Both the position numbers and the translations under genes were made by a program. The notes under the pieces were generated by a model. It had not been told where the DNA came from and ran no database searches. It saw only the letters and a program-made list of their open reading frames with translations. From a virus: a stretch of DNA of 64,000 nucleotides. Positions within the stretch are counted from its first letter, which is position 1, and each line of letters starts with the position of its first letter. Shown here one piece after another: positions 30,008 through 49,950 of the stretch. Location: positions 1 to 64,000 of the IMG/VR virus record IMGVR_UViG_3300043392_000054. One strand, 5' to 3'.

Positions 30008-30048
30008 GTTAGATATATAAATAAATTGTAATAAAAAAATAAAATATT

Positions 30049-31791
30049 ATGTCAGTACAAAGAATTAGTTCATTCAAAACTTTCACTGAAGTTAAGAATC
30101 AACAAGCATCCATTAAGATGCATGAAGAGAATAAAGCAAAAAGAGAACAACTTTTAGCTAAGATTGGTCAAACTCTTGAAGAAGAAGGCGTTACATCATT
30201 TGATGAATTAGATGAAGAGAAAAGAGGTGCTCTAGTCGCTAAAATTTTTAACGAAGATAGAGCTGAAGATATTGAAGCTGCTAAAGTTAAAATGGGTCAA
30301 CCTAAGAAACATGAAGATGAAGAGGGTAAAGCTTTACAAGCTACATCTGAAGGGAATGCATTTATTTATGCTGCAGCAAAAGCTAAAGCTGAAGGTAAAG
30401 ATGAATTTGAACATGACGGTAAAAGATATAAAGTAACTATAAAATCAGATACAGGTCTTAAAGAATCATCGTTAAGTGAATCAAAGGAATCACAAGAAGC
30501 CGAAGACATTCTAGATGACATTTTAGGTGAAAGAGATATGGAGGAAATTCACGGTATGTCAATGGAAGATGCATTAGATACAGTTGAAGCATACGGTCAT
30601 TCTGGCTCGAAAGCAAAAAAGATTGCTAAAGAACTTTGGTCATTATGTAATGAATCCAATGTTAATGAAGCTCGTTCAATTAATAAAATCCAAGGAGATT
30701 GGTCTAAAGTAACAGCTGAAATGGCAGCAAAAGCACAAGAGTGGAAAGCTACTGAAGGTGATGCTAAAGCTAAAATTTTAGATGAATTAAAAGCTTTAAC
30801 AGCAAAAAAGAAAGCTTTAGAAGCTGAATTAGATGCAGCGGTTGCTGGTAAAGATAAAGATTTAGAATTAGCAGTTAGCGAATCTTTAGAAGTAAACGAG
30901 TCAAAAATAGATGCATACGAAAATGAAGCATATAAACTTTCATTAAAATTAAAAGAAGTAGTCGATAAGTTTAGATTTGCTGCTCAAGATAAAATAAAAG
31001 ATGTAGAAGACAAGAAAAAAGCAGACCAAATAGTTAAAGCTTTAGATAGACTACACCCTATTTTACCTGAATTAGACGGCGCTCTTATTAATTTAAAAGC
31101 AGTTTTAAAAAGTGCAGGTGTAACTTTAGAATCTTTAGAAGTAAACGAAGATATTGATATTTTTGATAAAACTGCTGACCTTATGAATAAATTACAAGTT
31201 CAAATTGGTAATTTATTACATGCAGCAAAAGGAAATAAAGATTGGACTAAAGAATTAGAAGCTATTAAAGCTGCTTTTGAAAAATTAGAAGATAGAATGT
31301 CGATTGCTAGTAAGAAACTAGGTATGATTCCAGAATCAACTGAGGTTAACGAAACTGAAGAAGTTAACGAAGCAGACATTAATTCAGATGAAGAATTTAA
31401 AGAATATGCATTTACTGTTTTAAAGAAAGCATTTGGTGAAGATTTTGATGAAGCTAAAGCTCAAGAAGTTGTAGATGGTATTTTATCTAAATCAGATGGA
31501 GACTATGGTTCTGCTGTTGGTATGTTAACGAGCTCTTTGGGAGAATCAGTTACAAATGAAGCTACTGTTGAAGTAGATGCAGTTGACCCTAAAGATAAAG
31601 GTCTTGCTAAATTATTAAAGAAACATAAAGTTACTTTAGAAGTAATTAATAAAGAAGGACCATCTGGTTTTCCAGAAGTTAGATTAACAGGAAGTGCTAA
31701 AGACCTTAAAGCTGTTTTAGCCGATGGCGAATATGGTTGGGATGATGAAGACCTTGCTGATTATATCGAAGAGTCAAATACTGAAAACTAA
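30049..31791 (+). CDS. Modular acidic head-associated protein with repeated E-S-x-x-x-N-E linkers (probable protease-processed internal protein)
   Basis: Linkers LKESSLSES, CNESNVNEA, ESLEVNES, ESLEVNED, ESTEVNETEEVNEA and GESVTNEA separate helical modules. Confidence 0.55.
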   Translation: MSVQRISSFKTFTEVKNQQASIKMHEENKAKREQLLAKIGQTLEEEGVTSFDELDEEKRGALVAKIFNEDRAEDIEAAKVKMGQPKKHEDEEGKALQATSEGNAFIYAAAKAKAEGKDEFEHDGKRYKVTIKSDTGLKESSLSESKESQEAEDILDDILGERDMEEIHGMSMEDALDTVEAYGHSGSKAKKIAKELWSLCNESNVNEARSINKIQGDWSKVTAEMAAKAQEWKATEGDAKAKILDELKALTAKKKALEAELDAAVAGKDKDLELAVSESLEVNESKIDAYENEAYKLSLKLKEVVDKFRFAAQDKIKDVEDKKKADQIVKALDRLHPILPELDGALINLKAVLKSAGVTLESLEVNEDIDIFDKTADLMNKLQVQIGNLLHAAKGNKDWTKELEAIKAAFEKLEDRMSIASKKLGMIPESTEVNETEEVNEADINSDEEFKEYAFTVLKKAFGEDFDEAKAQEVVDGILSKSDGDYGSAVGMLTSSLGESVTNEATVEVDAVDPKDKGLAKLLKKHKVTLEVINKEGPSGFPEVRLTGSAKDLKAVLADGEYGWDDEDLADYIEESNTEN

Positions 31792-31807: not shown

Positions 31808-31835
31808 AAAAGACCCAATTAATCTTGGGTCTTTT
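31808..31835 (+). terminator. Intrinsic terminator (likely bidirectional)
   Basis: AAAAGACCCAA-TTAATC-TTGGGTCTTTT. Confidence 0.8.
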
Positions 31836-31849
31836 ATGTTTCTCTTAAT

Positions 31850-33130
31850 ATGAAAGCACTTTTAAATTATACAGAATTCCTTATTGAAAAATGGAATCAA
31901 AAGTATCCAACTTTAATTATGGAAGGTGGTGCAGCTGGCCACATGATGCATCCCTTTGATGATGACACTTTAACCTTTGGAGAAATCAAACACATCATAG
32001 ATGCTGCTTTACAGGGTAAATTAAACTTCGAAGAGGCACCAACTGAAAAAACAGATGGTCAAAATCTATTTGTTACGGTTAAAGGTGGAAAGGTTTTATT
32101 TGCTAGAAATAAAGGACAAATGAAAAGTCCAATAGACATTACACAAATTACGCAAATGTTCTTAGACCATCCATCTCCTGCAGTTAGAGATACTTTTACA
32201 TTTGCTGCAAATGATTTAGCTGGTGCATTATCTCACTTATCTGCTAAAGACCAAGCTGACTTTAATGATGGTAAATCATTTATGAATATGGAGTTAATTT
32301 ATTCAGGTAATGCAAACGTTATTTCTTATGAAAAGGATGTAATTCAATTTCATGGTATGATTCATACTGATGGAGAAGGTAACCAAACTGGTTCTGATTC
32401 TAAATTAGCTGGTAAAATTGCTGGAGCTTTAAAGGATGTTAATATGCATATTCAAAAAACTTTTGAAATTATACCTCCACAAGAACTTCAAATAGGTAAA
32501 GCAATTAATTTTGATGAAAAGAAATCTTATTTCTTAAATAAGATACAAACTTTACAAAATAGGTATAAGTTACAGGATACTGACCCAGTTTCAAAATATC
32601 ATGCAATGTGGTGGAAAGAACTGATTGACAAGGACTTTAAGAACCTAGACGAAATCGATAAAGCGGGTTTAGTTCAGAGATGGGCTTTTGATGATAAGAA
32701 AACTCTTAATGTTAGAGACTTAGCAAAGAAGATGTCTGCTGATGAATATAAAGAATTTCAACGTTTTGATAAAGAAGACGCTAAAAAGAAATTTAAGGAG
32801 AACATTGAACCATTTGAAAATTTATTCTTAGAATTAGGTTCTGTTGTTTTAAAAAATGTTTCGAATTTATTAGTTGCAAACCCTGATAAAGAAATGCAGC
32901 GTTTACACAATCAAATTAAAACCGAAGCAGATAAAATTAAACAAAACGGTGATTTAAGCCAAATGGCTAAAGTTGAAAAAGAATTAAATAGATTAAATTC
33001 AATTGGAGGTATTGAATCAATTGTACCTTCAGAGGGTTTAGTATTTCAATATAAAGGAAAGCTGTTTAAGCTGACTGGAACATTTGCTGCGATAAATCAG
33101 TTAATGGGTATAATAAAATATGGCAGATAA
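31850..33130 (+). CDS. Ligase-fold (ATP-grasp, RNA-ligase-like) nucleotidyltransferase with a capsid-targeting-like N-terminus
   Basis: Motif I PTEKTDGQN, motif III NMELI, motif IV SEGLVF and motif V FKLTG; N-terminus MKALLNYTEFLIE; EGGAAGHMMHPFD. Confidence 0.6.
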   Translation: MKALLNYTEFLIEKWNQKYPTLIMEGGAAGHMMHPFDDDTLTFGEIKHIIDAALQGKLNFEEAPTEKTDGQNLFVTVKGGKVLFARNKGQMKSPIDITQITQMFLDHPSPAVRDTFTFAANDLAGALSHLSAKDQADFNDGKSFMNMELIYSGNANVISYEKDVIQFHGMIHTDGEGNQTGSDSKLAGKIAGALKDVNMHIQKTFEIIPPQELQIGKAINFDEKKSYFLNKIQTLQNRYKLQDTDPVSKYHAMWWKELIDKDFKNLDEIDKAGLVQRWAFDDKKTLNVRDLAKKMSADEYKEFQRFDKEDAKKKFKENIEPFENLFLELGSVVLKNVSNLLVANPDKEMQRLHNQIKTEADKIKQNGDLSQMAKVEKELNRLNSIGGIESIVPSEGLVFQYKGKLFKLTGTFAAINQLMGIIKYGR

Positions 33131-33180
33131 TTTTTTTATATCAAATAAATTTATTATATTTACAATATTAAATTAAAAAG

Positions 33181-35043
33181 ATGGCATTACAAAGACTAAG
33201 AGATTTTTATCAAGCAACAAATAGCAATACATTTAATGAAATGTTAAAGCAAAAAGTTATTGTAACTGAGAAAATTGCTTCAACATCATTTCATGTTAGA
33301 AGAGGTTTAGAAGGATTTGAATATTTTAAATCTGGAAATACTGAACCAATGACAATGGTTGATAGAACTTTAACTTCATTATATGAAGTAGGAATTAAGC
33401 ATTTTCAAAGTCTTGTAAAAGATGTTAAAGAGGATATGCCAACTGATTGGAAATTCGGCTTTGATTATTTACCAGAGACTAATATTTCTTCTAGAATACA
33501 ATATGACCAAACACCATTTAATTTTATGATACTGTCACATATTCAAGTGATGACAAGTACTGGTAAAGTTAAAAAGGTTTTAACAGACCCTGTTGTTCTT
33601 AAAGAATGGGCTAATAAATTACAAGTACAAGCACCTACAATTATTTTTGAAGGTAATTTAGACCAATTACAAAAACAAGCATTGGTTAATTTATTATCGA
33701 CTTCAAATGAATCTTATCAAAAAAGATTTGCCAATGAGTCATTTACAAAACACGTATATAAATTATTTAATCCATCTGCATATAAATCAGTTCTTAATGA
33801 AGACTTAGAAAAACCAATTGATGGCTTAGTAATTAGCTTTATTGATTCTACGCAAATTAAGTCATTTAAATTAGATGAAGCATTAGAGCAACCTGAAGAG
33901 GTAAGAGAAAGCAGCCACATGTACCAATTAACAATGGTAGATATGCTAGAATATTTTTCTAATTACAATTTAGATTCAATCGAACTAGTAGAAACAGCTG
34001 CAGATAAAAGATATATTGAATTAGTTTCAACTATGTTTAATTCATACGTTAAAGAAAATGCAACCAAATATATCGGGGTTAATTTTAATTCTGCAGATTT
34101 TTCAAAATCCGAAATGTTTCAGCTAAATACAAAGTGGATTCAAAATGAAACAACACTAAGATACATTGAAAATCCTATTTTAGGAGAATTGTATAAAATA
34201 GTTTTAGGTTCATTTAATAAAAAGAAGATTAAAGAATCAACAATAATGAATCAAACTATGATTGAACAATTAAATGAAATTATTGACCAAATTGATGCAA
34301 AAATATACGCAGAACAAACTGATGAAAATGCAATTTATCAATTTAATCATTTCTTGTTAAAGAATAAAATTGCTGGAGCAAAGACAGACTTAAACGAAGC
34401 GCTTAAGATTGACTACCCAGAACAAGGAAAAGAAAAAGTTAATATATTTGTTGGTAGATTTCAACCATTCACCACAGGTCACGTAAAGGTCTTAGAAACA
34501 CTATACAAACAAAATGGGTATCCTGTAATTGTATTTTTAGTTAAAGCTAAAACTGCAAAAAAAGAGGATGCTATTAAAAGACCATACGATGTTGATACTC
34601 AAATAGAAATGTTTAATGCGGTTCAAAGAGAATACAAATTCTTAAAAGAAGTTATAGTTGTTCCATCTGCTGCGATTGACGTAATGTTTAATGAGTTAAG
34701 ACCTAAATATGAACCAGTTTTATGGGGCACAGGTACAGACCGAATGAAGGCATACGGTTATATGGTTAATAATGACAAATATAGAGATGAATTAGGAGTT
34801 CTTCCAGAATTTGGTCTTTATGAAATTCAAAGAGGCGACGATGATGTATCTGCTACTAAAGTTAGAAAGGCTTTAGAAGATGGAGATGCTAAAGAGTTTA
34901 ATAAAATGACACCTAATTCTTTACACTTTATGTTTGATGAACTAAAATCTAAATTAGAAGCTTCATTAGCTACATTAGAATCAATTGAAACAAATTTAGA
35001 TAATGATATACTAACATTTGAACAATTCATAACTAAACAATAA
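33181..35043 (+). CDS. Fusion of a degenerate ligase-like domain and a HIGH-motif cytidyltransferase/NMNAT-like domain
   Basis: N-terminal VTEKIAS...IDGLVI; C-terminal FVGRFQPFTTGH, GTGTDR and VSATKVRKAL. Confidence 0.65.
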   Translation: MALQRLRDFYQATNSNTFNEMLKQKVIVTEKIASTSFHVRRGLEGFEYFKSGNTEPMTMVDRTLTSLYEVGIKHFQSLVKDVKEDMPTDWKFGFDYLPETNISSRIQYDQTPFNFMILSHIQVMTSTGKVKKVLTDPVVLKEWANKLQVQAPTIIFEGNLDQLQKQALVNLLSTSNESYQKRFANESFTKHVYKLFNPSAYKSVLNEDLEKPIDGLVISFIDSTQIKSFKLDEALEQPEEVRESSHMYQLTMVDMLEYFSNYNLDSIELVETAADKRYIELVSTMFNSYVKENATKYIGVNFNSADFSKSEMFQLNTKWIQNETTLRYIENPILGELYKIVLGSFNKKKIKESTIMNQTMIEQLNEIIDQIDAKIYAEQTDENAIYQFNHFLLKNKIAGAKTDLNEALKIDYPEQGKEKVNIFVGRFQPFTTGHVKVLETLYKQNGYPVIVFLVKAKTAKKEDAIKRPYDVDTQIEMFNAVQREYKFLKEVIVVPSAAIDVMFNELRPKYEPVLWGTGTDRMKAYGYMVNNDKYRDELGVLPEFGLYEIQRGDDDVSATKVRKALEDGDAKEFNKMTPNSLHFMFDELKSKLEASLATLESIETNLDNDILTFEQFITKQ

Positions 35044-36527: not shown

Positions 36528-38414
36528 ATGAACTTTGAACAGTTTTTAAATGAAGCTAAAAATTTTAAAGTAGGAGACACTTGGGAGTGGCATGGTAAAG
36601 ATTGGTCTGCTGACCAAAAGAAAGATGTTGATACTATCAAGAAAGTTAAAATTACTAAAGTTGAAGGCTCTAATATTACAGGTCAATTTGATGGCGAATC
36701 TAAAGAGTATATCATTAGAGATGCTAACAAATACTTAAAGAAAAAAGTAAATGAGTCTGAAGAAATTACAGAATCTAACATCAAAGTTGGAGATACGGTT
36801 TCTAGAAAATTTATGGGAGAAGACCCAACTCAAACTTTCAAAGTTATTAGCATTTCAGGTGGTAAAGCTAAATTAAAAGATACTAAAACTGGAGAAGAAA
36901 ACGGAATGTATCTTTCTGACCTAATTAAAGAGTCTGAAGAATTAGAAGAAGCTACAAAGGAAAATCCAAGCGTTTGGGTTCCTGGCGGATTTGATAAAGA
37001 AATGTCAAAATATCCAAATAATAAAATAACTAAAGAAATAGTTCTTAAAGCTGCTAAGAAATATAACGTTGATGCAGAAGATGCTATTCAATATGTTGAA
37101 TTTGGATGGGATATAGATTTAAATGAAAGCGTAAATGAAGCTGAAGCGTCATACGGTTTATCTAAAGCCGAAACTAAAAAGGTTGCAGAAACTTTAGCTA
37201 AAGCAATCTCTAAAAATGACGGTGTTAAATGCACTGTTAATTTAAAATCATTAGAAGAAGATTCATTTGATTTAGATATCGATGGCGAGGAATATGAAGG
37301 TGGTTCTTATTATATCAATGATAAAGGCGAAGTAGTTAATGCTGCAATAACACCACATGAAATATATGGTAAAGCTGAATCTTCAGTTGAAGATTTTATT
37401 AAAGGTTTAAAGAAGCCAGTTAAAGAATCAGCAGAAGTTAATGAATCAAAAATCACAATTAAAAGACAATATACTGAAAATTACCCAGCATCAACTGTAG
37501 GTAAGCACGCTGGAGTTAGAAATAAAATTATCGAAGCTCTAAAAGATGGTCAATTAACTAAAGAAGAATTTGAACAATTAGTTTCAGGTTTAACAGAAGA
37601 TTCTAAAAGATGGTTAAAAAGAAATGCAGCATTCTTTAATATTCAAGAAGACCAAGTTTCATTATCTGCAACAGGTAAAAAGATTTTAAAATCTATTGAC
37701 GAATCGGGTTATAGACCAATGACAGATGCAGAAAGACAAAAAGCCCAATATAAGAAAAATCAATTAGCAAGATTAAGAGCCGTTGATAAGAAAGAAGAAG
37801 AAGGCAAAAGATTAAGAGCTTTACAGCAAAAGTTACATCAGCAAAAAATGAGAAAGGCAAATGAAAGCTTTATTTATGAATCATTCTCTGAGTTTGTTGA
37901 AAATGAATTAAATGAAAAGGCCTATAGATTAACAGGTCATTATACTACTAAAGGAATTATTGGTAAAGTGATGCAGACCTTTAAGAAACATATAGAGCAT
38001 ATTAAATATGAAGAAGATGTTGAAAAAACTTTAAAAGAAGTCAATAAGGCATGGGAGCATTTTCACAATGAAGGTTCTAAAATAATCTTAGATGAAGTTC
38101 ATAAGGCAGTTAAAGATATGGAACAAGTCCTTTATGTTCAAGTTGATGGATTAAGCCAACGTTGGGAAGCAGATACTATTAATAAATTAAATAAAGAAGG
38201 CGGACCTTTGTATATTGTAATTCCTGGCGATTTTGTAATTAACATTGGATTCATGGATGATGTAGACGGTTCTAAATTTAAAAACAAATTAGGCGGTATG
38301 ATGAATAGTGCTATTTCTGGAGGTGAAGATTTATATGGAGAATTTGACCCTGAAATAGATGAAAATAACGTAGAGATTAGAGGAAACGAAGTTATACAAA
38401 TAGATTCAAAATAA
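36528..38414 (+). CDS. Modular head-associated polyprotein-like protein with a capsid-targeting-like N-terminus
   Basis: MNFEQFLNE|A; linkers VNESEEITES, IKESEELEEA, LNESVNEA, VKESAEVNES and NELNEK; two tandem (F/I)KVGD SH3/KOW-like modules. Confidence 0.55.
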   Translation: MNFEQFLNEAKNFKVGDTWEWHGKDWSADQKKDVDTIKKVKITKVEGSNITGQFDGESKEYIIRDANKYLKKKVNESEEITESNIKVGDTVSRKFMGEDPTQTFKVISISGGKAKLKDTKTGEENGMYLSDLIKESEELEEATKENPSVWVPGGFDKEMSKYPNNKITKEIVLKAAKKYNVDAEDAIQYVEFGWDIDLNESVNEAEASYGLSKAETKKVAETLAKAISKNDGVKCTVNLKSLEEDSFDLDIDGEEYEGGSYYINDKGEVVNAAITPHEIYGKAESSVEDFIKGLKKPVKESAEVNESKITIKRQYTENYPASTVGKHAGVRNKIIEALKDGQLTKEEFEQLVSGLTEDSKRWLKRNAAFFNIQEDQVSLSATGKKILKSIDESGYRPMTDAERQKAQYKKNQLARLRAVDKKEEEGKRLRALQQKLHQQKMRKANESFIYESFSEFVENELNEKAYRLTGHYTTKGIIGKVMQTFKKHIEHIKYEEDVEKTLKEVNKAWEHFHNEGSKIILDEVHKAVKDMEQVLYVQVDGLSQRWEADTINKLNKEGGPLYIVIPGDFVINIGFMDDVDGSKFKNKLGGMMNSAISGGEDLYGEFDPEIDENNVEIRGNEVIQIDSK

Positions 38415-49523: not shown

Positions 49524-49617
49524 ATGTTTTAAGGAGATATATAATAAAATAATCTTAAACATATTTTTTTATTTCACGTAAATTAATTATATTTGTATAT
49601 CAAAAAACAACAAAATT

Positions 49618-49950
49618 ATGAAACACATTAAATTATTCGAACAGTTCGTAAACGAAGCTGTTAAATTTATCGATTTTAAATTTAACTCGCATAAAGACCA
49701 TAATCCATCATGTGATATTTTACAAGGTCACTTAGATGCAGATACTTTTATTACATACGGAATTTATATTAAAGATTATGGCGCAAGAAAAACCGGAGAT
49801 GAATTTATGGAATACTACACAGGTGAAAACTATAATGTAGGTTCATCTAAAAAATCAAATTCTAGAGTGTATACTGTGGATAAAATTCCAGCAAAATATA
49901 AGGCTGCTTGGGAAGAGTTAAAGTCAAAATACGAAGCTGAATATAAATAA
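49618..49950 (+). CDS. Small protein with a capsid-targeting-like N-terminus (MKHIKLFEQFVNE|A)
   Basis: ORF track; motif shared with other genes in the window. Confidence 0.65.
   Translation: MKHIKLFEQFVNEAVKFIDFKFNSHKDHNPSCDILQGHLDADTFITYGIYIKDYGARKTGDEFMEYYTGENYNVGSSKKSNSRVYTVDKIPAKYKAAWEELKSKYEAEYK

Follow-up and report, generated by a model that had tools for sequence, protein, structure and literature searches.

A ligase-fold gene and a pseudo-ligase/NMNAT-like fusion gene as the possible core of a capsid-targeted enzyme module in an uncultured T4-like phage

The window analysed here, i.e. positions 1 to 64,000 of IMG/VR record IMGVR_UViG_3300043392_000054, comes from an uncultured T4-like phage whose record is 182.8 kb long and judged only 64% complete; a cultured close relative was searched for and none was found. 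Positions 31850-35043 carry two genes, A and B.

31850..33130, + strand: gene A, predicted ligase-fold covalent nucleotidyltransferase (426-aa ORF; AF2 model of mean pLDDT 86)
33181..35043, + strand: gene B, ligase-fold domain, helical domain, linker, NMNAT-like HIGH nucleotidyltransferase and C-terminal tail (620-aa ORF; AF2 model)

Gene A is predicted to encode an intact covalent (lysine-nucleotidylating) ligase-fold enzyme belonging to a large, phage-only and uncurated family. This family includes 1875 cluster representatives (E<=0.001), and gene A found no match in Pfam, PHROG or the PDB sequences. Its main features are the following.

32042..32059, + strand, residues 65-70: motif I, TEKTDG, with K67 as the predicted nucleotidyl-accepting lysine (E66, K67, D69 and G70 invariant in alignment A1)
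32477..33004, + strand: helical insertion of about 175 residues between the NTase core and the motif IV/V hairpin (model helices at residues 221-384)
33026..33079, + strand, residues 393-410: motifs IV and V, PSEGLVFQYKGKLFKLTG, on the last beta-hairpin (P393, E395, G396, F399, K407 and G410 invariant)

K67, D69, G70, R86, E148, E395, G396 and K407 are invariant in alignment A1, which gathers 30 sequences down to 36% identity. The residues of motifs I and V are also invariant in an alignment (A3) of 46 long relatives of the A domain, the long fusions, at least 90% of which retain the counterpart of E395. The motif match therefore cannot be attributed to chance. Furthermore, motifs III, IIIa, IV and V follow each other in canonical order, with E148, F167-H168, E395-G396 and K407 conserved. 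The 13 best VIA structural matches of the AF2 model are all RNA or DNA ligases, with Z scores of 6.8-8.9 that are middling by the tool's own scale, yet all belong to one family; the ten best are RNA ligases, and the leading Foldseek matches are almost all RNA or DNA ligases. The ligase structures align over about 190 residues scattered along residues 24-426 of A and flanking the helical insertion. HMM comparison of gene A with PF09414, PF09511 and PF19782 (E<=0.1) gave nothing above the curated cut-offs, and a single one of the 30 relatives matches PF09414 (E 0.02, under the cut-off). DUF6267 (PF19782) is absent among the families listed for the 30 relatives (E<=0.1) and for the 46 long fusions (E<=0.001), and is found on only 23-24% of members in the Atlas clusters nearest A.

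The A family is nevertheless very divergent. It carries a conserved GGAxGHMxHPFD segment, N-terminal to motif I and unique to the family, a large helical insert and a single conserved motif V lysine (K407), whereas Rnl1 and Rnl2 have two. These peculiarities could suit an enzyme that is no polynucleotide ligase and that nucleotidylates a protein or a small molecule, for example by AMPylating a target in the host or attaching a group that resembles a cap. This is very improbable, as all nucleotidyltransferase motifs of A stand in canonical order, its strong fold matches are all polynucleotide ligases and its fusion partners in other phages (see below) work on RNA ends. Protein AMPylation, which the sequence-only reading had offered as one possible role, received no support.

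Gene B begins with a second ligase-type fold, followed by a helical domain.

33181..33891, + strand, residues 1-237: N-terminal ligase-type NTase fold (AF2 model and fold matches)
33265..33282, + strand, residues 29-34: decayed motif I, TEKIAS (E30 and K31 invariant in close relatives)
33913..34380, + strand, approximately residues 245-400: helical domain (AF2 helices of mixed confidence)

Residues 1-237 match the fold of T4 Rnl2 (Z 12.1, 193 of 233 residues aligned, rmsd 3.7), NgrRnl (Z 12.0) and REL1 (Z 11.6). PF09414 is present in 18-69% of members of the Atlas clusters nearest this domain, and no PF09414 HMM match was found in gene B, where the only Pfam match covers residues 422-563 (PF01467, 33 bits for a cut-off of 21). 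In close relatives, the glycine position of KxxG is occupied by S, A or G. The clade of B itself keeps K31, D/E95, D214 and K230; distant relatives (25-33% identity) have ENLDG, ENIQG or EDIQG, from which the lysine has gone, and do not keep K230 or D95. Since the catalytic lysine is lost in these distant relatives, the domain is probably a pseudo-ligase, i.e. a non-catalytic binding or scaffold module. The sequence-only reading had called this copy degenerate because it lacks the DG of motif I; decay is indeed supported, by the lysine loss, but the original ground was the missing DG only, and the clade itself retains the four residues mentioned above.

The best structural matches of both proteins are RNA ligases of the Rnl2/REL1/Rnl5 and Rnl1/Trl1 types (T4 Rnl2 1s68/2hvq, NgrRnl 5cot, TbREL1 1xdn, Trl1 9qw7/6n0t), with Z scores of 7.8-8.9 for A and 10.7-12.1 for residues 1-237 of B. 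Like these enzymes, they display the NTase fold and motifs I, III, IIIa, IV and V in order. Unlike them, neither A nor the N-terminal domain of B has a Pfam ligase match above threshold, A carries the insert of about 175 residues before motif IV, the GGAxGHMxHPFD segment and a single motif V lysine, and distant members of the B N-terminal family have no catalytic lysine.

The C-terminal half of B is of a different kind.

34387..34401, + strand, residues 403-407: DLNE|A, a predicted target of the prohead protease, within the disordered linker that joins the two halves of B (E406 invariant in 18 relatives)
34429..34968, + strand, residues 417-596: NMNAT-like HIGH-superfamily nucleotidyltransferase domain (AF2 fold, profile and Pfam)
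34453..34482, + strand, residues 425-434: HIGH motif region GRFQPFTTGH, of the (T/H)xGH form (TLGH or TMGH in relatives, HxGH in fused relatives)
34849..34866, + strand, residues 557-562: second HIGH-superfamily signature, SATKVR (SxTxxR), aligned with the equivalent NadM stretch
35011..35040, + strand: C-terminal tail LTFEQFITKQ (TFEQFI), a capsid-targeting-type motif placed at the C-terminus (T612, F613 and Q615 invariant, F616 nearly so)

The domain at residues 417-596 is predicted to be an NMNAT-like transferase of the archaeal/NadM type. Its model matches M. jannaschii NMNAT (MJ0541, 1f9a) with a Z score of 14.5 (155 of 164 residues aligned, rmsd 2.6) and NadM with Z scores of 14.1 and 12.9, and the profile of alignment A2 retrieves only NMNAT (MJ0541, 3.6e-5) and NadM (3.1e-4) under E 0.01 among PDB sequences. 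The fold scores of PPAT and NaMNAT nearly equal that of NMNAT. PF01467 has a single match in the 182.8-kb record, in gene B. Like the archaeal NMNAT, NadM (2qjo/2qjt) and phage NAD+ salvage enzymes (PMC7824862), this domain combines GRFQPF(T/H)xGH with SxTxxR; unlike them, it is fused to a ligase fold and not to a Nudix domain or a NadR-type kinase, and part of the archaeal conserved segment differs, the stretch aligned with NPF..ER being RPY..TQ.

The linker of B holds a candidate processing site. Residues 378-407 have a pLDDT below 50, all 18 relatives show L, I, M or V three residues ahead of the putative cut, and naturally split forms of B terminate just past DLNE|A. The tail is retained in relatives of 419-422 aa devoid of the HIGH domain, as well as in related viral loci.

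Globally, the sequence-only reading is borne out on the architecture of the locus: of the two neighbouring genes with a ligase fold, the first has kept its motifs, and the second combines a decayed copy with an NMNAT-like HIGH transferase. Structure prediction gave the ligase nucleotidyltransferase fold for A and for residues 1-237 of B. Each sequence feature that the sequence-only reading had named in the two genes was found where it had been placed, including the intact motifs of A, invariant in 30 relatives, GRFQPFTTGH, accompanied by SATKVR and by the NMNAT fold at residues 417-596, and the DLNE|A site between the domains of B, with its invariant E406.

The two genes are tightly linked: A lies upstream of B in all 71 related viral loci and is immediately adjacent to it in 60. 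In other phages, the A domain is often part of fused multidomain proteins of 600-1900 aa. A GRFQP-type HIGH motif is present in 106 of 130 long A-domain representatives, and Pfam CTP_transf_like in 25 of the 46 long relatives, some of which also carry a Zeta_toxin/AAA_33 kinase, a PolyA_pol (CCA-adding) domain with HD, or a 2H phosphoesterase. Microcystis phage Mel-JY01, for instance, encodes a HIGH-A fusion. Both fused relatives whose context was examined adjoin virion genes, and one of them is encoded 1.5 kb 5' of genes for terminase, portal and protease. The genome studied here also encodes, at 174868-175584, a leader-tagged P-loop kinase that shares 46% identity with the kinase part of a kinase-HIGH-A fusion and would be the third part of a module whose activities most other phages fuse in one protein. 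The folds and the gene linkage are solid. As to the two-gene module that had been proposed from the sequence, the functional link between the ligase-like and HIGH parts stands, A preceding B at every locus and the domains being fused in most relatives; its limits do not, since the tagged kinase resembles the kinase found within fused relatives and polyprotein genes flank A and B, so that the module is wider than two genes.

The nature of the partners bears on what the module may do. Fusions with CCA-adding, HD, 2H and P-loop kinase domains favour nucleic-acid (RNA) end repair. Like T4 Pnkp (PseT)/Rnl1 and the fungal Trl1 ligase-kinase-CPD, the module associates a ligase with a P-loop kinase, and some relatives add 2H/HD end-healing or CCA-adding domains, which recalls the heal-and-seal logic applied to cleaved RNA. 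Unlike in these systems, the dominant partner is a HIGH (NMNAT-like) transferase, the proteins are capsid-tagged, and ordinary Rnl1 and Rnl2 are also encoded by the genome. We know of no RNA-repair system that includes a HIGH-type transferase. The presence of canonical Rnl1 and Rnl2 makes the need for a further RNA-repair ligase not obvious.

The module might instead act on DNA, A sealing nicks or breaks in an injected hypermodified genome or taking part in fill-and-seal repair. Such a role would agree with the position of the pair within a replication region, with the DNA ligases found among the fold matches of A and B, and with the failure to find a PF01068 or PF01653 DNA ligase in the 182.8-kb record. 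However, this record is judged only 64% complete, three of five related records carrying A and B encode a canonical ATP-dependent DNA ligase of 436-445 aa, RNA ligases outrank DNA ligases for both A and the N-terminal domain of B, and the CCA-adding enzyme, HD and 2H partners are RNA-end enzymes. Action on DNA is thus quite unlikely.

Another explanation is that two independent counter-defence tools are merely carried together, as is seen in polyvalent proteins, with the HIGH domain serving as a phage NMNAT that rebuilds NAD+ after NADase defences and A as a separate RNA-repair ligase, chemically uncoupled from it. The C-terminal domain of B is closest to NMNAT and NadM and is the sole HIGH transferase of the record, jumbo phages are reported to encode NMNATs of the HIGH-Nudix and HIGH-kinase types (PMC7824862), and polyvalent proteins do unite unrelated activities (PMC5512222). 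Against this, the frequency of HIGH among long A relatives is far above that of any other partner, which argues for a direct functional tie and not for loose co-travel. Furthermore, the kinase of the module is of the Zeta/AAA_33 type, a Pfam family different from that of the NadR nicotinamide riboside kinase. Mere co-travel is therefore considered unlikely.

Delivery with the virion is suggested by the N-terminus of A.

31850..31888, + strand: capsid-targeting-like leader of 13 residues, MKALLNYTEFLIE, with a predicted cut after E13 (aromatic-x-x-F-[IL]-x-E register)

The capsid targeting sequence of T4 is MKTYQEFIAE (10.1101/2021.01.19.427310; PMC9026906), in which residues 4 and 7 are involved in targeting and residues 8 and 10 direct processing (PMC9026906). 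YTEFLIE in the leader of A shares the register of YQEFIAE in T4. The leader is retained in relatives, including that of a 462-kb phage at 33% identity (MKFLKSYEEFLNE), and forms a helix of its own in the AF2 model (residues 7-18), after which comes a linker of low confidence (19-30). The leader noticed in the sequence-only reading is real and recurrent: its pattern ([FYW]xxF[ILVMT]x[EKQ] inside the first 20 residues) occurs in 13 of the 228 predicted proteins of the genome, for 0.93 expected from the background rate. The genome encodes a portal, a capsid protein and a head maturation protease (phrog_207, 64213-66063). The N-terminus of the capsid protein reads MAQLINE|A and the leaders end with [VIL]NE|[AS], so that the [LVI]-N-E|[AS] motif of the B linker is also found after the leaders and after the first residues of the major capsid protein.

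This organization resembles that of T4 IPI-III and Alt, with an N-terminal leader in the CTS register, a Glu cleavage point and a gp21-type protease in the genome; T4 Alt, processed at both ends (PMC9026906), provides a precedent for a packaged enzyme trimmed in this way. It differs in that the predicted cargo comprises an enzyme of the ligase fold, the pseudo-ligase-NMNAT fusion and a kinase, and that the motif of B is C-terminal. As in polyvalent proteins (Iyer et al. 2017, PMC5512222), the fused relatives are multidomain, the two examined for context lie beside virion genes, and early action after injection is the apparent aim. In contrast to polyvalent proteins, the present genome distributes the domains over several tagged genes, and the Pfam searches run on the fusions revealed none of the described hub domains zincin-like peptidase, ArdC-N and MuF. 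The survey of polyvalent proteins reported no RNA ligase (PMC5512222).

The surroundings of the pair give a more mixed picture. It is flanked by two conserved "internal polyprotein" genes, each containing 5 [VLI]NE sites for about 0.24 expected and present in 68 and 57 of 80 loci, respectively. The wider region is the replication region (gp32, primase, UvsW, split polymerase, RNR, UvsX) and not the head module, which counts against packaging. Three upstream elements were recognized.

30011..30021, + strand: late-promoter-like box, AGATATATAAA, 38 nt 5' of the polyprotein gene starting at 30049
31808..31835, + strand: terminator-like hairpin in the gap between the 30049 gene and gene A, 14 nt 5' of the A start codon (11-pair stem with 4 G-C pairs, T-rich tail)
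33149..33164, + strand: 16-nt upstream box, 32 nt 5' of the gene B start, with an equally spaced second copy 5' of the tagged gene at 181497

The box [AGT][AG]ATATATA[AG][ATG] occurs 28 times in the genome, 23 of them within 110 nt upstream of a start, and the genes so preceded include portal, prohead protease, tail and five leader-tagged genes; its position suggests that it may act as a late promoter. The box at 30011..30021 is the only promoter-like element 5' of gene A, which has no promoter of its own and, given the intervening hairpin, would be made by read-through. The late-type box speaks for a late-made, packaged module, the hairpin and the missing promoter of A against it. The pattern A[AT]TTATTATATTT[GA] occurs twice genome-wide, each time 32 nt 5' of a start. 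A similar stretch lies upstream of the tagged gene at 49618.

A and B could accordingly be ordinary cytoplasmic enzymes acting in replication and never packaged, their terminal motif serving to dock on a phage partner that they share, or being a conserved cassette for recombination or the start of translation. The location among replication genes and the upstream box of B, which is not of the late type, speak for this, and the repair ligases of T4 itself are not virion proteins. However, the leaders precede a cleavage motif identical to that of the capsid protein N-terminus, that of A survives at 33% identity in a huge phage, and the flanking genes are packed with protease-type sites, while fused relatives adjoin terminase and portal genes. 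The leader of A also fits the targeting and processing positions defined experimentally in T4 (PMC9026906). Unpackaged enzymes thus appear rather unlikely.

The reading that we prefer, to which we give an even chance, is that A and B form the core of an enzyme module that is split over several genes and targeted to the capsid, made late, packaged in the head and injected, and that combines end joining of the RNA-repair type with nucleotide supply. The folds, motif conservation, gene linkage, fusions, leader recurrence and cleavage-motif conservation are results of the analysis, whereas packaging, cleavage, timing, substrates and every activity, including NMNAT activity, are inferred. The A and B proteins would be made late, and the N-terminal leader of A and the C-terminal tail of B would bring them into the prohead core. 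There, the gp21-type head protease would cut A after E13 and B after E406, freeing the NMNAT-like half. The products of both genes would then be ejected with the DNA, and are probably injected as a repair or cofactor kit. In the cell, A would seal the broken ends of nucleic acids, most likely of RNA or tRNA that nucleases of the host have cleaved, the kinase would heal 5' ends, and the HIGH domain would make or recycle an adenylylated nucleotide, most likely NAD+ from NMN and ATP.

A bolder and quite improbable version would have A arrive with the virion as a ligase and obtain its adenylate donor on the spot from its NMNAT-like partner, by synthesis or recycling. A might, for instance, depend on NAD+ to ligate RNA or DNA and release NMN, which would be converted with ATP into NAD+, with the kinase feeding in nicotinamide riboside. 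To our knowledge, no ligase has been described with direct substrate channelling; if this version were true, the near-obligate ligase/HIGH fusion found over hundreds of phage lineages would be a case of it, and the module would be an injected repair machine able to work on in cells in which abortive-infection NADases have destroyed the NAD+.

The record comes from a T4-like phage (182.8 kb, 30% G+C, nearly all genes on the + strand) encoding replication genes (gp32-like SSB, primase, UvsW-like helicase, split family-B polymerase, NrdAB and UvsX) and virion genes (portal, head maturation protease and major head protein). The window corresponds to its first 64 kb. The two genes studied here, A and B, are located between the helicase and polymerase genes. 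Both open reading frames, and every motif that the sequence-only reading had quoted for them, are indeed present in the sequence:

31850-33130, + strand: gene A, ORF of 426 aa
33181-35043, + strand: gene B, ORF of 620 aa
35045-36490: ORF of 481 aa beginning 2 nt past the B stop codon, with an AVNE/S site (slash, putative cut) near its N-terminus

The last ORF has no family match in Pfam or PHROG and is found in just 11 of the 80 related loci. It is therefore an accessory insertion, outside the conserved module.

Gene A matches no entry of Pfam or PHROGs, and its sequence searches against the PDB returned nothing relevant. Its relatives are nevertheless numerous (1763 by a word-indexed search; 1875 representatives of 50%-identity clusters at E<=0.001 by an exhaustive search) and are viral throughout, both in the Atlas taxa and in every locus retrieved. 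This is an uncurated phage family, devoid of any curated model or solved structure. The Atlas suggested the label DUF6267, but Pfam scans of A and of 76 relatives yielded no match to it and the label was rejected; none of the papers searched mentions this family.

In an alignment of 30 relatives (36-87% identity), residues of A that never vary include E66, K67, D69, G70, R86, E148, P393, E395, G396, F399, K407 and G410, among them those of motif I (TEKTDG; E66, K67, D69 and G70), motif III (E148) and motifs IV/V (P393-G410) of ligases. In 46 long fusion proteins, the residues of motifs I and V show no variation either, and at least 90% of these proteins carry a counterpart of E395. The AlphaFold2 model (mean pLDDT 86, pTM 0.81) displays a leader helix (7-18), a low-confidence linker (19-30) and a mixed alpha/beta core, followed by a stretch of helices (221-384) and, at the end of the chain, a beta-hairpin bearing motifs IV and V. 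The leading Foldseek matches in the PDB are nearly all RNA or DNA ligases, with weak scores (E ~0.01, TM ~0.2), as the helical insert prevents a good overall superposition. With VIA-align (48,161 chains), the top 13 matches are ligases, with Z values that are middling by the program's own scale (NgrRnl 8.9, TbREL1 8.2, Trl1 8.1, T4 Rnl2 8.1, T4 Rnl1 7.5), and each aligns ~190 residues located on both sides of the insert. The uniform ligase family of these matches and the ordered invariant motifs make the fold assignment secure, and we have little doubt that A has a ligase fold with intact catalytic motifs. The scores of RNA ligases exceed those of DNA ligases and capping enzymes by just 1-3 Z units. 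A is unusual in its ~175-residue helical insert, in having just one conserved lysine in motif V and in a conserved GGAxGHMxHPFD segment preceding motif I.

As the record already carries a canonical Rnl2 (~117.1-118.2 kb) and a canonical Rnl1 (~123.0-124.1 kb), A is an additional, specialised enzyme. No canonical DNA ligase was found in the record, which IMG/VR judges 64% complete. A role of A or B as the replicative DNA ligase was rejected, since three of the five related records having the A-B pair encode a canonical one.

In B, the only Pfam match is PF01467 (CTP_transf_like, residues 422-563), and the AlphaFold2 model (mean pLDDT 74) combines two recognizable folds. Residues 1-237 match T4 Rnl2 (Z 12.1, rmsd 3.7, 193 residues aligned), NgrRnl (Z 12.0), REL1 (11.6) and Trl1 (11.0). 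Residues 417-596, or HIGH domain, match the NMNAT of M. jannaschii (Z 14.5, rmsd 2.6, 155/164 residues), then NadM (Z 14.1 and 12.9), then PPAT and NaMNAT. Likewise, a profile of 18 B relatives has only two matches at E<0.01 among PDB sequences, the NMNAT MJ0541 (3.6e-5) and NadM (3.1e-4). The HIGH motif reads GRFQPFTTGH, a TxGH variant, and SATKVR represents the SxTxxR signature. As to the ligase-like domain, members of the close clade (48-79% identity) retain E30, K31, D/E95, D214 and K230. In huge-phage homologues at 25-33% identity, motif I becomes ENLDG, ENIQG or EDIQG, and D95 and K230 are also lost, which indicates that selection does not maintain covalent catalysis across the family. 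The description of this domain as a degenerate copy of the ligase fold, made from the sequence at the outset, is thus the better reading, and the domain is probably a pseudo-ligase, as judged from these substitutions.

Neither BLASTP nor profile-profile comparison of the two families detects any similarity between A and B, so their ligase-fold domains are not recognisable paralogues. Weak repeated HMM matches link the helical domain of B to the helical insert of A, all with E >0.01. The N-terminal domain of B was detected in none of the 150 A-domain representatives searched. As to the other half of B, it is the only HIGH transferase of the record and may double as the NMNAT of the phage; NMN as its acceptor is a tentative and rather doubtful proposal.

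In 80 related viral loci, whose B copies are 51-78% identical to B, A precedes B wherever the flanking sequence is long enough (71 loci) and is its immediate neighbour in 60; the 462-kb phage LR756500 likewise has the two genes side by side. Furthermore, the exhaustive search reveals that the A domain (~20-426) is nearly always the C-terminal end of longer proteins (500-1900 aa). A GRFQP-type HIGH motif, mostly near the N-terminus, occurs in 106 of the 130 A-domain representatives of at least 560 aa, and Pfam detects CTP_transf_like in 25 of 46 long A relatives. The other Pfam partners in these 46 proteins are Zeta_toxin/AAA_33 kinase (four), ROS_MUCR (four) and DUF5661 (three), together with enzymes acting on RNA ends, i.e. 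PolyA_pol with an RNA-binding domain (three, E 1.6e-64, one with HD) and a 2H phosphoesterase (one). The dominance of HIGH suggests a direct tie of this domain to the ligase, and A and the HIGH domain very likely constitute a functional unit. The RNA-end enzymes point to RNA, which is a serious, if slightly doubtful, candidate for the substrate of A. Complex prediction for A (20-426) and the C-terminal domain of B (407-620) gave a score of 0.00, which is no answer and speaks neither for nor against binding.

Several of these fusions deserve a description of their own. In the protein P0311 (1312 aa), ~400 unassigned residues separate a C-terminal A-type ligase domain from an entire CCA-adding enzyme, which comprises PolyA_pol (E 1.6e-64), its RNA-binding domain and HD. 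The Microcystis phage Mel-JY01, the only cultured carrier encountered, encodes a 639-aa HIGH-A fusion 2.6 kb upstream of the terminase gene; in another phage (locus L095), 1.5 kb separate a kinase-HIGH-A fusion from the terminase, portal and prohead protease genes downstream of it. In L095 (L095:1-6765), a giant ORF of >2250 aa, whose last 921 residues have no PHROG match, is located two genes upstream of this fusion, and in a second locus (L104:1-7008) such an ORF directly precedes the kinase-HIGH-ligase fusion; in both phages the fusion is beside the terminase gene.

A kinase is also encoded by the phage studied here, as a separate gene:

genome 174868-175584 (L083:868-1584), outside the window: P-loop kinase of 238 aa whose N-terminus, MKKYVKLYEEFIEE, is a leader of the capsid-targeting type

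Along its entire length, this kinase shares 46% identity with the kinase domain that opens P0282, a 1258-aa kinase-HIGH-A fusion. This phage therefore has, as separate genes, the three predicted activities that are fused elsewhere. The PHROG matches of the kinase include a weak one to polynucleotide kinase, and among PDB sequences nothing scores better than a weak match to seryl-tRNA(Sec) kinase (E 0.016). It is seen in one of five related records, all partial, at a contig end.

The internal proteins of T4 are loaded into the prohead via a 10-residue capsid targeting sequence (CTS), MKTYQEFIAE, and undergo a single cut after it (10.1101/2021.01.19.427310). Within the CTS, targeting depends on residues 4 and 7 and processing on residues 8 and 10; Alt, an enzyme packaged by T4, is processed at its two ends; and the CTS is regarded as a general route by which T4-like phages load diverse proteins (PMC9026906, PMC3012670). 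In the genome studied here, 13 proteins carry a leader [FYW]xxF[ILVMT]x[EKQ] in their first 20 residues versus 0.93 expected (~14x chance). Most leaders read MK-x-[VI]-K-L-F-E-[QED]-F-[IV]-x-E, the tagged proteins (at least 13) are otherwise unrelated, and most of their genes cluster at 174.8-182.7 kb, at the end of the record. The leader of A, MKALLNYTEFLIE, has the same 13-residue register and is kept in relatives; in LR756500 it is MKFLKSYEEFLNE, directly followed by the conserved domain. B carries a leader-type motif at its C-terminus, LTFEQFITKQ (T612, F613 and Q615 invariant), also kept in natural 419-422-aa split forms lacking the HIGH domain. A motif [VLI]NE[SATGD] terminates many leaders and also occurs in the capsid protein, right after its initial residues. 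The site of B is located in a disordered linker and its E406 is invariant; a second [VLI]NE site (204-207) is not conserved among relatives. The genes concerned in the window are as follows:

24271, 36528, 49618 and 63783: starts of tagged genes
30049-31791: flanking gene, acidic protein with 5 [VLI]NE[SATGD] sites (~0.24 expected)
36528-38414: flanking gene, acidic protein with 5 [VLI]NE[SATGD] sites (~0.24 expected)

The flanking genes keep their position in related loci (30049-type in 68 of 80, 36528-type in 57 of 80) and, from their composition and sites, look like protease-cut internal polyproteins. Globally, this support for capsid packaging of A and B is circumstantial and tips the balance somewhat in its favour.

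Two other N-termini were observed. The major head protein (genome 66213-67676, L082:4213-5676) begins MAQLINE/AEI; if cut there, its propeptide would be just 7 residues, whereas T4 gp23 loses 65 (PMC9026906). Many HIGH-ligase fusions of other phages (P0285, P0305, P0325, P0336, P0340 and others) start with the conserved sequence M-N-x-L-[ST]-x-[FY]-L-[VI]-E-x-I-L-x-E, right before the HIGH motif; this leader may be the targeting signal of another lineage or merely helix 1 of the domain.

The genome contains fewer copies of the T4 late promoter TATAAATA than expected (16 versus 41). Genome-wide, 23 genes, among them portal, protease, tail and tagged genes, are preceded at 13-83 nt by a box [AGT][AG]ATATATA[AG][ATG]. 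At distances of 26-65 nt, a GATATATAA-type box precedes portal, protease and tail genes as well as several of the tagged genes; for the 30049 gene, the distance is 38 nt. The [AGT][AG]ATATATA[AG][ATG] box is probably the late promoter of this phage, in place of TATAAATA. The elements cited here are:

window 30011, 36491 and 62106; genome 64181: examples of the box
window 31808-31835: terminator-like hairpin between the 30049 gene and A
window 33131-33180 and 49560-49617; genome 181440-181496: longer AT-rich upstream elements

The position of A downstream of the 30049 gene and of the hairpin suggests that A is a read-through, lower-level product of the late transcript. The box upstream of B differs, being a 16-nt element common to B and the tagged gene at 181497. 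The longer AT-rich element, ending in TTATATTT[GA], is common to B and two leader-tagged genes, and resembles the Bacteroidota -7 promoter element TAnnTTTG.

These data lead us to propose a late-made, packaged, trimmed and injected module for repair and nucleotide supply, a mechanism that we consider, as a whole, evenly balanced between right and wrong. A and B would be produced late in infection, loaded into the prohead core via the A leader or the B tail, trimmed after E13 in A and E406 in B, and ejected together with the DNA. A would then seal broken RNA or other nucleic-acid ends via lysine 67, the tagged kinase healing 5' ends for it. The NMNAT-like domain of B would supply or recycle adenylylated nucleotide, and its N-terminal pseudo-ligase could be a binding or scaffold module.

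In the passages retrieved by term searches, surveys of jumbo phages and viral NAD+ metabolism report Rnl1, Rnl2 and RtcB ligases as well as HIGH-Nudix and HIGH-kinase NMNATs (PMC7824862, PMC9503650), and a survey of polyvalent proteins names RNA ligases only as never associating with its 2H domains (PMC5512222). The same term searches inside these three surveys found no description of a ligase-HIGH pairing or of a capsid-tagged ligase. The new ligases would be useful reagents, and the short leader with its [LVI]-N-E cleavage code is a possible tool for packaging proteins in phages of hosts other than E. coli. The near-constant pairing of A with an NMNAT-like domain suggests a chemistry that, to our knowledge, no known ligase system uses. 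If the proposed mechanism is true, abundant aquatic T4-like phages would carry a kit of ligase, NMNAT-like transferase and kinase into the cell within the capsid, and the idea drawn from T4 Alt and IPI would cover not just host-modifying and anti-restriction proteins but also the repair of nucleic acids and the supply of cofactors at the onset of infection.
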